This document shows, piece by piece, positions 2,965 to 46,508 of a DNA stretch of 64,000 nt; the stretch's first letter is position 1, and the number at the start of each line of letters is the position of its first letter. The notes under the pieces were generated by a model. That model did not search any database, was not told the origin of the DNA, and was given only the letters and a program-made list of their open reading frames with translations. Position numbers and translations under genes: made by a program. The stretch is from Bacteroidales bacterium (GTDB lineage: Bacteria; Bacteroidota; Bacteroidia; Bacteroidales; UBA10428), in contig JBGSSA010000141.1 in NCBI GenBank assembly GCA_041737295.1, positions 397 to 64,396 on the forward strand, given 5' to 3'.

Positions 2965-2970
2965 AAAATG

Positions 2971-2990
2971 ATTTGTTGATTTGTTGATTG
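2971..2990. repeat. 8-mer tandem repeat (ATTTGTTG) x2.5
   Basis: Direct reading: atttgttg atttgttg attg. Confidence 0.9.
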
Positions 2991-2993
2991 TTT

Positions 2994-3056
2994 AGGCTGA
3001 AGGTTGAAGGCTGAAGGCTGAAGGCTGTAGGATGAAGGCTGTAGGATGAAGGTTTT
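2994..3056. repeat. 7-mer tandem repeat (AGGCTGA and variants AGGTTGA/AGGCTGT/AGGATGA) x9
   Basis: Direct reading shows nine contiguous heptamers. Confidence 0.95.
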
Positions 3057-3084
3057 TAGGGAGTCTTCTCCAGAAGAGGAACTG

Positions 3085-3140
3085 ACTGCAAGACTGCAAA
3101 ACTGCATAACTGCAAAACTGCAAAACTGCAAAACTTTCTC
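3085..3140. repeat. 8-mer tandem repeat (ACTGCAAA) x6, ending in the junction unit ACTTTCTC
   Basis: Direct reading: actgcaag actgcaaa actgcata actgcaaa x3 actttctc. Confidence 0.95.
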
Positions 3141-3171
3141 ACTCGTCCCTCGTCACTCGTCCCTCGTCACT
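3141..3171. repeat. 14-mer (two alternating heptamers, ACTCGTC/CCTCGTC) x2.2; minus strand reads GTGACGA/GGGACGA
   Basis: Direct reading. The repeat overlaps the last 6 codons and the stop of the histidine kinase gene. Confidence 0.9.
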
Positions 3172-4934
3172 TCTTTCGACAGGGTAAACAGAAATTCCAG
3201 TCCGCCCCCAACCCGGTTCCTTACAGAAATCTCCCCCTTGTGAAACTGAACGGCATTTTTTACAATAGCAAGTCCGAGGCCGGTGCCTCCGCTTTTACGG
3301 TCACGTCCTTTATCTACCCTGTAGAACCGTTCAAACAGCCGGGGCAGGTCACTGGCAGGCACACCGATACCTGTATCGGAAAATGAAAAGTAATAAAATT
3401 CCTTATCCTCAAGGTATTGATCGACCCTGATCGTAAGGTCATTCCCTCCATGACGTATGGCATTATCAAAAAGATTCCTGAAAATGGAATACAACAATAC
3501 CGGATTCCCGTTGATGGGCAAAAATTCCGGAAGGGCAAGTTCAAGGGATATATTTTTCTCCTTAAGCTGCAATTCAAGCTCAACGGAAATATCGCGTATG
3601 AGCTCATTGATATCGGCCTTTTCAACCAGGTAAAGGGTTGAAGCCTCTTCTATTTTTGTAAGCAGTGAGATATCATTGATAAGGTCCGCCAACCGGCTCG
3701 ACTGCAAATAGGCGCGTTGAAGGAAATCTGCTGTCTTTGCCTTATCGATATTGCCCTGCAGAATGGTTTCAAGAAATCCTTTTATCGAACTGACCGGGGT
3801 CTTAAGTTCATGGGCAATGTTTTCCGTGAGCTGTTGTTTCAGTATTTTGCGCTTTGCCGGTTTGGTAATATCGTTGATTGAAATTTCAAATGTCCGGTCA
3901 AGAAAAACTACGCTTTTCACCGAGAAAAACTTACCATTCCGGCTAATCACAATTTCATATGTAGGCAATGAACCAGCCTGGTTTGCCGGGTCAAACTTCA
4001 GATTTTTATCTACAAAATTTACGAGGGAAGCAAAATCTTCGATCCTGAAAAATTCTTCCCCGGAGATAACCCGTTTATCGCTGATCTGGTTAAGAAAACC
4101 GATAAAGTGGGCATTGCTTGTAATGATAAGTTTATCGGGTGAGAAAATGGCAATCCCTTCGTCAAGCAAATTCAGATGCCGGATCAGTTTGGCCTTTTCA
4201 GCAAGTAGTTCTTCCGTGGTTTTGTTTAACCGCTTATAAATATCGATTATGTCCTGCCCGATAACCCCAAGCTCATTACCCGGAAAATTCATTTCCTTGT
4301 CAATAGGCTCATTGGCCAATGCCTTCTTCGTGAATTGCCGCAAGGTCCGGATTGATTTGCCGAATTTATCGTTGATAAGGATGATTGAAAACGAAGTAAT
4401 GAAGAAGATCAACAGGATAAACAGGATAAAAACCCGGTCGGGCTGAATAAATTTTCTAACAGTGAAATCATAGACTTCCGAAACCCTGATGAATACATTG
4501 CTGAATTTACGTGCATAATAATAATACTCAACCTTCGTCGTATTCGATCTCCGGATATCGGTTCCGTAAATGCCGCCAATTGCCTGCTGCACCTCCGGCC
4601 TTTGGAAGTGATTCTCAATGCCGGAGGGATCCTTTACCCATGAATCATACAGTACCTTCCCGTCCCCGGCGATGAGGGTAATGCGCAGCGACTTTTTTGA
4701 AATGAGAGAATTCAGGGTATCCATCCGGGCAAAGTTCCCGGAAGCAATCATATTGTAGCGCCTGGTATAATTGTTTATGAGCACTGTATAGTTGTCGAGC
4801 TCCTTATTAAGTGCGTCAATACGGAATTTCTTCTCATGACGGAATTCCGAAACCAGCAATACTGTCGTGAAGAGCAATAAAAACGATACAATATAGAAAA
4901 GCCACTTCCTGCTGTAAGAGAATAATAAATTCAT
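3153..4934 (-). CDS. Sensor histidine kinase, PhoR-like by context
   Basis: H-box ENIAHELKTPVSSIKGF, and N/G boxes FRNLFDNAIRHG, DTGIGV, GGTGLGLAIV. N-terminal TM segments are present. ATG 4934 is preferred over TTG 4961. The gene is paired with an OmpR/PhoB-type regulator next to the pst operon. Confidence 0.8.
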   Translation of the reverse strand: MNLLFSYSRKWLFYIVSFLLLFTTVLLVSEFRHEKKFRIDALNKELDNYTVLINNYTRRYNMIASGNFARMDTLNSLISKKSLRITLIAGDGKVLYDSWVKDPSGIENHFQRPEVQQAIGGIYGTDIRRSNTTKVEYYYYARKFSNVFIRVSEVYDFTVRKFIQPDRVFILFILLIFFITSFSIILINDKFGKSIRTLRQFTKKALANEPIDKEMNFPGNELGVIGQDIIDIYKRLNKTTEELLAEKAKLIRHLNLLDEGIAIFSPDKLIITSNAHFIGFLNQISDKRVISGEEFFRIEDFASLVNFVDKNLKFDPANQAGSLPTYEIVISRNGKFFSVKSVVFLDRTFEISINDITKPAKRKILKQQLTENIAHELKTPVSSIKGFLETILQGNIDKAKTADFLQRAYLQSSRLADLINDISLLTKIEEASTLYLVEKADINELIRDISVELELQLKEKNISLELALPEFLPINGNPVLLYSIFRNLFDNAIRHGGNDLTIRVDQYLEDKEFYYFSFSDTGIGVPASDLPRLFERFYRVDKGRDRKSGGTGLGLAIVKNAVQFHKGEISVRNRVGGGLEFLFTLSKEVTRDE

Positions 4935-4942
4935 ATGTTCAG

Positions 4943-5638
4943 TTAATCCATTTCGAAGCAATATCCATATCCTTTGCGGGTAACCAGGAATTTCCCATAG
5001 TCTCCCAGCTTTTTCCGAAGACGGGTTACATGCACATCCACGGTCCTCTCTGTAACGGAAACATCCTTCCAGATAAAATCAAGGATCTGATCCCGGTCGA
5101 AAATTCTGCCCGGATTTTTGAGCAACATATATAGTAATTGAAATTCAATGGGGGTAAGGTCTTCCCGCTGACCGTCAATGGTGAGCCGTTTTTTTTCCAG
5201 GTCAAGCGATATGCCCTCAATCCGGATCGCATCCTCCGGATTCTCATGCTCTGATTTGCTTTCAGCCCTTCGGGCAACAGCTTTTACCCGGGCAATGATC
5301 TCCTTCACTGAAAAAGGCTTCGTGATAAAATCATCCGCCCCAAGAGAAAACCCTGTAAGCTTGTCATTTTCGGAGTTTTTAGCTGTGATGAAAATGATGG
5401 GGGTGGTGAGTTTTTTCCGTTTCCGGATCTCATCGGCCAGTTTGTATCCCGACATGCCTTTCATCATTACGTCAAGCAGGAAAAGCTGGTATCTTTCAAT
5501 TTTACGTGTCAGCGCCTCTTCCGCTGAATTTACCGTATCTGCAATAAATCCTTCCGACTCGAGATTGAATTTCAGGATCTCGCATATGTCCTCCTCATCA
5601 TCCACTATAAGAATACGGTACTTTTTGAGGTCTGTCAT
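4943..5638 (-). CDS. OmpR/PhoB-family response regulator, PhoB-like by context
   Basis: Receiver domain (ILIVDDEEDI, LFLLDVMM) plus a winged-helix domain (ERTVDVHVTRLRKKL). Divergent from the porin-pstSCAB-phoU block. Confidence 0.85.
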   Translation of the reverse strand: MTDLKKYRILIVDDEEDICEILKFNLESEGFIADTVNSAEEALTRKIERYQLFLLDVMMKGMSGYKLADEIRKRKKLTTPIIFITAKNSENDKLTGFSLGADDFITKPFSVKEIIARVKAVARRAESKSEHENPEDAIRIEGISLDLEKKRLTIDGQREDLTPIEFQLLYMLLKNPGRIFDRDQILDFIWKDVSVTERTVDVHVTRLRKKLGDYGKFLVTRKGYGYCFEMD

Positions 5639-7054: not shown

Positions 7055-7085
7055 AGGGACTAGGGACTAGGGACTAGGGACAAGG
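7055..7085. repeat. 7-mer tandem repeat (AGGGACT x3, AGGGACA, AGG)
   Basis: Direct reading. It starts 4 nt after the porin stop. Confidence 0.9.
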
Positions 7086-29076: not shown

Positions 29077-29514
29077 GTGAAAAACATGCAGGATATACAG
29101 CAGGAGATAGTGGATGAATTCGAAGTATACGATGACTGGATGGATAAATACAATTACCTGATCGAATTGAGCCGTAACCTTCCATTGATCGATCCAAAAC
29201 TGAAGATCAATGAAAATATAATAAACGGCTGCCAGTCCAAAGTATGGCTAAGCGCCGAATACAAGGAAGGCCTGGTTTGGTTCAAAGCTGACAGCGATGC
29301 TATAATAACCAAGGGTATTATTGCCCTGCTTATCCGCGTATTATCCGGAAGGTCCCCTGAAGAACTCATGCAAAGCGAATTGTGGTTTATTGACAAAATC
29401 GGCCTTCGTCAGAATTTATCGCCTACGCGATCGAATGGCCTGCTGTCAATGGTAAAACAAATGAAATTATACGCGTTGGCGTACCACACGAAGAAAGTGA
29501 CGAGTGACGAGTGA
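29077..29514 (+). CDS. sufE: Cysteine desulfuration protein SufE
   Basis: GCQSKVWL active-site motif. The start is GTG 29077 or ATG 29086. The last 5 codons plus the stop lie in a GTGACGA repeat. Confidence 0.88.
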   Translation: MKNMQDIQQEIVDEFEVYDDWMDKYNYLIELSRNLPLIDPKLKINENIINGCQSKVWLSAEYKEGLVWFKADSDAIITKGIIALLIRVLSGRSPEELMQSELWFIDKIGLRQNLSPTRSNGLLSMVKQMKLYALAYHTKKVTSDE

Positions 29515-29531
29515 CAAGGAGGAAGTGACCT
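29497..29531. repeat. 7-mer tandem repeat (GTGACGA x2, GTGACAA, GGAGGAA, GTGACCT)
   Basis: Direct reading. It supplies the sufE stop codon (GTGACGAGTGA). Confidence 0.85.
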
Positions 29532-29545
29532 GTTTAAAAGATAAT

Positions 29546-29633
29546 AAATGTAGAGGCGACTCTCAGAGTCGCCTTAACCGTAACTAAATAAATGCAGAGA
29601 CGACTCTCAGAGTCGCCTCAACCGTATCTAAAT
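29546..29633. repeat. 44-bp tandem duplication x2, each carrying a hairpin (GGCGACTC-TCA-GAGTCGCC)
   Basis: Units at 29546..29589 and 29590..29633 differ at a few positions. Hairpins are at 29555..29573 and 29599..29617. Confidence 0.9.
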
Positions 29634-29657: not shown

Positions 29658-29981
29658 ATGGAAAACGAAAGATCATTGTTGTCGATTGAGGCAGAAGTGG
29701 TAAATGTGTTGAAAACTACATATGATCCCGAAATACCGGTCAATATTTACGATCTCGGACTGATCTATGATATTGAAGTGGATGATACTAAGAAGGTACG
29801 TGTTACGATGACACTGACCGCCCCTAACTGTCCGGTCGCCGACAGTCTCCCCCAGGAGATCCGCGACAGGATTGCCTCTCTTGAAGGAATAACCGGAGTG
29901 GATATCAATCTTGTGTTTGATCCGCCCTGGAATCAGTCGATGATGTCGGAAGAAGCACTTCTCGAACTAGGCATGTTATAA
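29658..29981 (+). CDS. DUF59/MIP18-family Fe-S assembly protein (SufT-like)
   Basis: 107 aa with DPEIPVNIYDLGLIY...LTAPNCPVA, a typical DUF59 pattern. Last gene of the suf cluster. Confidence 0.85.
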   Translation: MENERSLLSIEAEVVNVLKTTYDPEIPVNIYDLGLIYDIEVDDTKKVRVTMTLTAPNCPVADSLPQEIRDRIASLEGITGVDINLVFDPPWNQSMMSEEALLELGML

Positions 29982-31115: not shown

Positions 31116-31199
31116 CTGGATGGGTATTAAAGTTTATACAAAGATACATCACTTGATATAAAATGATATTATCTTTGACGCACGTTCATTATTTTATTG

Positions 31200-31304
31200 C
31201 TTATCCAGAAAGGTGGAGGGTATGGCCCTGTGAAACCTTAGCAACCCTTTCAGATTTTGAAAGAAGGTGCTAACTCCTGCTCCGGCTTGCCGGGGATAGA
31301 TAAG
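31200..31304 (+). promoter_or_regulatory. SAM-I (S-box) riboswitch
   Basis: CUUAUCCAGAAAGGUGGAGGGUAUGGCCCUGUGAAACCUUAGCAACC...AAGGUGCUAACUCCUGC...GAUAAG. It matches the conserved S-box core and P1 (CUUAUC/GAUAAG), and lies upstream of hom. Confidence 0.9.
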
Positions 31305-31316
31305 TCGGACATCGTG

Positions 31317-46351: not shown

Positions 46352-46431
46352 GATTGCATGACTGCACGACTGCGCGACTGCCGAACTGCCGAACTGCTAA
46401 ACTGCTAAACTGCAAAACTGCAAAACTTTCT
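46352..46431. repeat. 8-mer tandem repeat x10 with stepwise unit drift, from GATTGCAT to AACTTTCT
   Basis: gattgcat gactgcac gactgcgc gactgccg aactgccg aactgcta x2 aactgcaa x2 aactttct. Confidence 0.95.
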
Positions 46432-46459
46432 TGTCCCTTGTCCCTTGTCCCTCGTCCCT
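46432..46459. repeat. 7-mer tandem repeat (TGTCCCT x3, CGTCCCT)
   Basis: Direct reading, followed by T8. The module order matches 3085..3171. Confidence 0.92.
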
Positions 46460-46508
46460 TTTTTTTACTACCTTTACGGGCGTTAAAAAATAAATCCCAA
46501 AAAAACAC

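Follow-up and report, generated by a model that had tools for sequence, protein, structure and literature searches.

A dispersed heptamer repeat probably supplies the last residues and stop codons of SufE and a histidine kinase in a Bacteroidales genome

The window analysed here, a 64,000-nucleotide stretch of a Bacteroidales genome, carries a sufE gene on its plus strand (29077..29514) that encodes 145 residues, with the SufE domain at residues 13-130. Gene callers place the start at the ATG at 29086, which gives a protein of 142 amino acids, and the public gene call has the same final residue as the window ORF. The 3' end of the gene reads ACG AAG AAA GTG ACG AGT GAC GAG TGA, that is, T K K V T S D E followed by a stop. 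This end runs into an array of three plus-strand heptamers: GTGACGA (29497-29503), GTGACGA (29504-29510) and GTGACAA (29511-29517). The codons for VTSDE (29497-29511) lie within these units and the TGA (29512-29514) lies within the third; the last 15 coding bases and the stop codon fall within three repeat units. Past the stop the array degenerates (29518..29531, plus strand) into GGAGGAA, a form of the GGAAGAA-type flank usual in this family, and then GTGACCT. It contains no GGG tract.

The next gene is an Fe-S assembly gene (29658..29981, plus strand; PF01883 in orthologous contigs). The enlarged spacer before it is filled by 2.1 copies of a 44-base unit (29543..29633, plus strand), each with the hairpin GGCGACTCTCAGAGTCGCC. 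From the sufE stop to the next gene we measured 143 nt in the genome under study (G000), 151 nt in its closest relative (G001) and 103 nt in a third genome (G024), as compared to a median of ~12 nt in the relatives, which indicates that modules were inserted into a tight operon junction. A terminator scan around sufE found no clear plus-strand terminator, only minus-strand consensus matches at the 44-nt repeat. In an Rfam search of the window the arrays matched no family; the sole hit was a SAM riboswitch (RF00162, 89 bits, 31198-31306, plus strand). The GGCGACTCTCAGAGTCGCC hairpin is also present, as one copy, behind the sufE array of a relative at 87% identity (metagenome contig L059), and strains at 98% protein identity carry a AATCCCGTCAGGGATT module instead.

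The second gene is a histidine kinase on the minus strand (3153..4961), with HisKA at residues 375-439 and HATPase_c at residues 486-596 of 602. Its 3' end, TCG AAA GAA GTG ACG AGG GAC GAG TGA, encodes S K E V T R D E and a stop. Four minus-strand heptamers (GTGACGA GGGACGA GTGACGA GGGACGA, 3143..3170, read from 3170 down to 3143) contain the VTRDE codons (3170-3156) and, within unit 3, the TGA (3155-3153), and a degenerate fifth unit, GTGAGAA, follows (3136..3142, minus strand). An earlier note on this DNA had claimed that both tails and their TGA stops are encoded by one heptamer family whose arrays continue past the genes, and in the sequence this is exact to the base. The array chain goes on at 2969..3135 (minus strand) up to the start of panC, with (AGTTTTGC)n at 3135-3085, (CCTTCAG/CCTACAG)n at 3052-2994 and (CAAATCAA)n at 2989-2969, all on the minus strand. 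The spacer from the kinase stop to panC is almost entirely four successive arrays of different families, and the order GKGACRA, then AGTTTTGC, then others recurs. Elsewhere in the window the heptamer family is represented by (GGGACTA) x4.4 (7055..7085, plus strand) and (GGGACAA/GGGACGA) x4 (46430..46460, minus strand), and the pattern GTGACGAGTGA occurs six times with at most one mismatch, 0.47 being expected.

The assembly (5.42 Mb, 258 contigs) contains 2976 tandem arrays, 771 of period 7 and 693 of period 8. All genome-wide counts given here rest on a crude greedy ORF set (n = 4070) and not on a curated annotation. Most array bases (33,223 of 39,797) fell outside these ORFs. Considering any 7- or 8-base array, a gene stop lay inside it for 206 genes and within 10 nt of it for 158 more; the corresponding numbers for starts were 38 and 53. 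Across the whole genome 27 proteins ended in T[SR]D[EK], as compared to the 0.24 predicted by how often these 4-mers occur internally. The carriers that we examined belong to unrelated families (SufE, the kinase, PhoH, HAD, aldolase II, HypB, MORN and SDF) and include cytoplasmic, membrane and secreted-type proteins.

We counted the heptamer family itself as runs of G[TG]GACNA / G[TGA]GACNA (n = 242). The stop of a long ORF fell within the first three units in 93 runs, deeper in 23 (116 of 242 in total) and 0-10 nt upstream in a further 45. Altogether 161 of the 242 runs were at or within 10 nt of the stop of a long ORF, and many runs touched no gene. The two-gene scope of the earlier note was thus too narrow: both genes were confirmed, but ~116 genes meet the same repeat family. 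The placement is polar. On the 5' side of a run, the adjoining gene had its 3' end toward the run in 159 cases and its 5' end in 27 (p = 6e-24). Among co-directional contexts, sense runs numbered 73 and antisense runs 21 (p = 7e-8), and only 2 of 199 runs were in divergent spacers.

The three reading phases were used 63, 24 and 27 times, which is not uniform (p = 4e-6). The excess lies in the class where TA and the first G of the array form a TAG stop at the 5' edge of the array (39 cases). The base before the run was A in 95% of all runs, and TA preceded ~42%. Either arrays nucleate on stop codons, or selection favors junctions that leave no tail. Of the 27 runs entered in the same phase as SufE and the kinase, 22 stopped by unit 3, as compared to 45% expected from unit composition (p = 1e-4). 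This excess of early stops suggests that long read-throughs are pruned, presumably by selection. Recoding of TGA is not a viable explanation, as TGA ends 1097 of the 4070 crude ORFs. One membrane protein (C82:13938-14711, minus strand) has an acidic C-terminal stretch of ~30 residues, ..EEGTSDEGQISDEGQETNDEKGRGTRDE, that resembles several units read through; the N-terminus of this crude ORF also enters an antisense array.

To compare C-termini we located SufE in 39 of 41 related genomes. In nearly all of the 39, homology ended at residue 139-141 of 145. Within the genus, array-less SufE proteins end in AY[HQK]TKY followed by 1-6 variable residues, as in AYQTKYQ*, AYHTKYESPN*, AYKTKYEKET* and QTKYGH*. 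In G001, where SufE is 85% identical, the units GTGACAA GTGACGA GTGACGA GTGACAA give KRVTSDE*. In G024 the units GGGACAA GGGACTA GTGACAA GAGACAA are entered in another phase with no in-frame stop, and the protein ends HT-RDKGLVTRDKEIKSR*; in a further genome (G002) SufE reads through a degenerate array. The 120 closest SufE homologues in a large metagenome protein collection displayed a wide spread of array-translation tails (VTSDK, MTSDK, VTSDR, VTSDEGQAGRL, RDKGQGTRDQLVHL, AQQKKVTSDK and RDKGRDE), and beside them were array-less tails such as TKYAGSA, TKYSEK and TKAQAK. Well over a dozen different C-termini occur among close relatives of this one housekeeping protein.

Similar results were obtained for the kinase. 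Its conserved end is F[TS]Lx[KR][DN], after which a variable tail begins, and in the 13 array-less orthologues these short tails all differed from each other (for example LAKDISLTSTL*, LARDLRSSQD* and LFRNLK*). The G001 kinase (89% identical) ends LSKE-GTRDE* because its first unit is GGGACAA. The G002 kinase (69% identical; units GTAACGA GTAACGG GTGACGA) ends LSKE-VTSNG* because its units are of the GTAACGA form. The comparison indicates that the kinase tail is repeat-derived and that the junction of array and kinase is older than the split of the three species. Orthologues of SufE and the kinase without adjacent arrays had no VTxDE terminus, so the repeat-capture interpretation survives the comparison that the earlier note had proposed for it. 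Its broader claim that the arrays remodel coding 3' ends was also borne out: array-less orthologues lack the tail, and array-bearing relatives have variants dictated by their arrays.

Two further genes follow the same pattern. PhoH ends AYE-SDKGRVTRDE* in the genome under study and AYEKNP* or AYEKII* in array-less relatives. HypB ends GTRDK*, and in G001 another array family, GGTAATC, is found at the same gene end. The Pfam domains of PhoH (residues 108-311 of 321) and of the SDF symporter (73-460 of 472) end before the tails. The ends that were replaced or extended are short and naturally variable ones only, with the conserved domains intact. The earlier note had left open whether arrays expanded over the original stops or whether genes were truncated or extended by insertion; replacement or extension of a short unconserved tail stood, while truncation did not, since the Pfam domains end before the tails.

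Variation is also seen between strains. Two metagenome contigs (L057 and L058) match the window at 404 of 411 sufE coding bases (98.3%) up to the junction, with 98% protein identity, and there the units GTGACAA GTGACAA GTGACGA GGGACGA encode VTSDK. Their spacer is 382 nt, as compared to 143 nt in the window, and it is filled by 3-4 copies of a module made of four heptamers and a AATCCCGTCAGGGATT hairpin. In L059 and L060 unit 3 is of the GGGAC type; the TGA is lost and six residues are added. The sufE array has three units in the window and four in G001 and L057, yet the stop is in the same position. The in-frame TGA is always in unit 3, so copy number does not move it, and given at least three GTGAC units the tail does not depend on copy number. 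The earlier note had suggested a check for copy-number variants that shift the stop. In the independent assemblies the stop is moved in other ways: either a unit has G for T at its position 2, or the junction itself is displaced.

The arrays have a preferred length. Runs of 2, 3, 4, 5, 6 and 8 units numbered 43, 33, 148, 12, 4 and 2, respectively. Runs free of GGG displayed the same mode (9, 13, 34, 2 and 1 runs of 2 to 6 units). Among the 148 four-unit runs 34 lacked GGG and only 36 had four GGG tracts. G-quadruplex formation therefore cannot be the general reason for the four-unit mode. In about a third of runs the 3' flank was GGAAGAA or a near variant, and beyond the array there were often hairpins, terminator-like stems or other arrays. 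Origin by slippage only was rejected, since copy number is quantised at four instead of decaying with length as expected. Phase variation was rejected as well: the arrays are 3' of the gene and leave the upstream frame untouched, unlike contingency simple-sequence repeats.

A protein family is associated with arrays of this kind. The genome under study has six PF05635 genes (Avd-like four-helix-bundle proteins), at C212:2519-2830, C156:26041-26355, C167:197-514, C52:42392-42709, C14:52585-52890 and C72:56108-56395. All six have inverted arrays on both sides, of a different family each, although a strict automated test caught three and the other three, with short or more distant arms, were judged by eye. 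The arm families are GGGACT[AG] (followed by GGAAGA), TAGTTGA, GAAGGCT, GGAGTAG, AATCGTA and TTGATCTG, and each is abundant genome-wide. The strict test found inverted flanks of one family at 7 of 4070 genes, three of which were the PF05635 genes (p = 6e-8). Over this genome and 60 relatives from the genus and order, inverted bracketing was found at 18 of the 30 best PF05635 loci and at 0 of 94 control loci taken from those genomes (p = 4e-14).

GKGAC-type arms were present at 13 of the 18 bracketed loci, including C212:2519-2830. The GKGAC-armed proteins, that one included, all fall in one supported clade, which could be a single locus passed on by vertical descent. Within the genus, PF05635 copy number correlated with the number of GNGACNA x3 matches (rho = 0.63, p = 4e-5), and the four genomes that lack PF05635 had 0, 0, 2 and 0 such arrays. 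The arms point inward, so each is sense to the outer gene that ends there, and array pairs with no gene between them are also mostly inward in the genome under study (21 inward, 3 outward). On the other hand, the sufE and kinase arrays are solo copies with no inverted partner and no PF05635 gene in their spacers; their link to the cassette is correlative and is one of family resemblance only.

The most likely explanation for these data, to which we assign a probability of roughly 0.85, is that VTSDE and VTRDE, with the TGA stops that follow them, are not ancestral coding sequence but the part of a dispersed heptamer module into which the reading frame runs. In this genus the module has the consensus (G[T/G]GAC[A/G]A)x4 followed by GGAAGAA, and is found at stop codons or directly behind them, in sense orientation to the preceding gene. 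With a period of 7 and a TGA in the GTGAC units, a ribosome in any frame meets a stop within three units. This leaves room for only three classes of short tail: zero or one added residue (TAG at the junction, or xAG TGA); x[S/R/G]D[E/K]; and [V/G]T[S/R]D[E/K], with SufE and the kinase having entered in the third phase. A GGGAC unit in place of GTGAC lacks the stop, and the tail then continues. For sufE and the kinase gene, the orthologue comparison shows that the module replaced a short unconserved native tail together with the native stop, and its coding part drifts with the same polymorphisms as the non-coding units. Since the evidence consists of ORFs, translation of the tails in the uncultured host is inferred; most likely they would be tolerated by-products. 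We are less sure of the origin of the solo modules, which may be copies of the heptamer arms that flank PF05635 genes and point inward. The cassette may be the source of the arrays, or the PF05635 protein may recognize them.

One alternative is that the arrays function as all-frame translation stops at gene ends, guarding against read-through or frameshifted ribosomes before hairpins and terminators, and that the tails are the price. The GTGACRA units do have stops in all three frames (TGA, period 7), and 161 of the 242 modules are within -inf to +10 nt of a stop codon. The modules are polar and in sense orientation, most of the abundant families have stops on the sense strand and none on the other, the array is often followed by hairpins or terminator-like stems, and the cassette arms place the same stops just before PF05635 genes. 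However, GGGAC[AG]A units do not provide such stops: GGGACAA and GGGACGA, which make up 360 of the 877 units, have no stop on either strand, and neither does the commonest 8-mer, AGTTTTGC. The sufE array also lies within an operon junction that measures ~12 nt in relatives, and we know of no read-through-prone feature of this organism. We consider this explanation unlikely, though it fares better than the other rivals.

It could be speculated that the module confers a selected C-terminal tag on many proteins, as a signal for degradation, sorting or interaction. A small, discrete set of tails does recur on more than 27 proteins, and early stops are commoner than unit composition predicts. Several observations make a tag quite improbable, however. 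The carriers are functionally unrelated and differ in location, from cytoplasmic to membrane and secreted-type; the tails of a single orthologue flip between E and K or V and G, lengthen or are lost between strains or species; all three phases and the no-tail class occur; and the variation mirrors that of non-coding units.

Another possibility is that the tail is ancestral and that the gene seeded the repeat, with replication slippage extending the array outward from the gene's final codons. Ahead of the junction the native sequence is rich in A and in part resembles a unit: ACGA, at the end of the ancestral ..CAT ACG A.., equals unit positions 4-7, and the ..AAA GA. of the kinase is like the usual 5' flank. 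This is nevertheless very hard to reconcile with one unit family at 242 loci, many of them away from genes, with a tail common to 27 unrelated proteins, with array-less orthologues that lack it, or with runs quantised at four without the length decay expected of slippage products, and we give it almost no weight. Finally, an artefact of assembly or gene calling in a fragmented metagenome-assembled genome, whose 258 contigs repeats could have broken or mis-joined, can be dismissed: at 21-28 nt the arrays would fit inside a typical sequencing read, the final residue is the same in the public gene call, and identical junctions recur in independent assemblies (G001 and the JGI/ENA metagenome contigs L057-L061) from other species and samples.

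Within the preferred reading, a read-in module, it is conceivable that PF05635 genes and the tandem heptamers make up a two-part system: every protein subfamily would have a 7-nt unit of its own, the gene would lie between inward-pointing arms, and solo four-unit copies of the arm would be seeded on, or recruited to, translation stops across the genome. We regard this proposal as tentative and rather doubtful. If it were true, the C-termini and stops of ~3-5% of genes would be rewritten as a side effect and operon junctions expanded, and the four units would be the footprint of a multimeric reader and not a G-quadruplex. The association offers a concrete candidate protein partner for the puzzle of common intergenic heptamer repeats in bacteria.

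Short repeats downstream of genes are known from other bacteria. The REP/BIME elements of Enterobacteria are intergenic mosaics of imperfect palindromes that form modular chains downstream of genes, turn over fast and vary between strains. The arrays described here are likewise modular chains of short repeats that change quickly between strains, but their units are non-palindromic tandem heptamers, polar relative to the gene. The reverse complement of GTGACGA is TCGTCAC, so a unit cannot pair with itself and the REP/BIME stem-loop is lacking.

A closer resemblance is to the GGGNATC / GGGGA(C/T)T heptamers of Xanthomonas and Nostoc, which are genome-wide tandem 7-nt units with a preference for four units; they are rare between divergent genes, and downstream copies are on the coding strand at most 50 bp away from the stop codon or overlapping it (Rehm et al. 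2015, PMC4692102). Our arrays share all of this, being dispersed, mostly non-coding 7-nt tandems with a four-unit mode, on the sense strand near stops and rare between divergent genes. They differ in unit sequence and in phylum. The four-unit preference in Xanthomonas and Nostoc was attributed to G-quadruplex formation (Rehm et al. 2015, PMC4692102); four G-tracts are not a general feature of our arrays, and a four-unit rule without them argues against that explanation. Shared protein tails and comparative turnover of C-termini are not reported in that study.

TAACTGA direct repeats occur in marine Beggiatoaceae, Cyanobacteria and five Bacteroidetes (MacGregor 2015, PMC4679880). Read forward they have stops in all three frames, and in 13 cases they overlap the stop of the upstream gene; the author noted that insertions survive at protein ends (MacGregor 2015, PMC4679880). 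The all-frame stops are shared by our GTGACRA units and not by GGGAC[AG]A. In contrast to GKGACRA arrays, TAACTGA repeats have 2-6 copies with no fixed number and lie mostly just upstream of start codons, where they were read as translational regulators (MacGregor 2015, PMC4679880); 7/8-base arrays here overlap 206 stops and 38 crude ORF starts. That study contains no orthologue comparison of tails.

Among long prokaryotic simple-sequence repeats, heptamers were the commonest class in a statistical survey that proposed polymerase slippage (Mrazek, Guo and Shah 2007, as cited in PMC4679880). The dominance of 7- and 8-nt units outside coding regions in our genome agrees with the survey as described there, a description in which quantised copy number, stop-codon docking and cassette arms do not appear. 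A literature search for the exact units found nothing relevant. A search for PF05635 together with repeats found no link to heptamer arrays, only the relation of PF05635, or 23S rRNA intervening-sequence protein, to Avd-like four-helix bundles (PMC10053308). The PF05635 genes in our genome resemble an ORF in the stem of a flanking inverted sequence; unlike 23S rRNA intervening sequences, they are not inside rRNA genes.

The GKGACRA arrays thus belong with the stop-hugging heptamer repeats of Xanthomonas, Nostoc and Beggiatoaceae. To these our analysis adds comparative proof of array-rewritten C-termini, a process ongoing between strains, a four-unit rule without G-tracts and a statistical tie to PF05635. 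It is routine in this bacterial genus for stop codons and terminal residues to come from a non-coding repeat, which is a source of measurable variation in protein ends. Annotation pipelines and orthologue alignments will take such tails for real sequence divergence.

Two additional observations concern the surroundings of these genes in relatives. In G001 a GKGAC-armed PF05635 gene (G001:C7:100390-100704) is located ~9 kb from the kinase orthologue. Synteny would put the corresponding site of the genome under study past the start of contig C101, so the assembly may lack a second cassette. In two other relatives (G010 and G014) the sufE stop and the ATG of the following gene are both covered by an array of a different heptamer, GTAATGA/GTGATGA, and in G014 the arms of a PF05635 gene consist of this unit family too.
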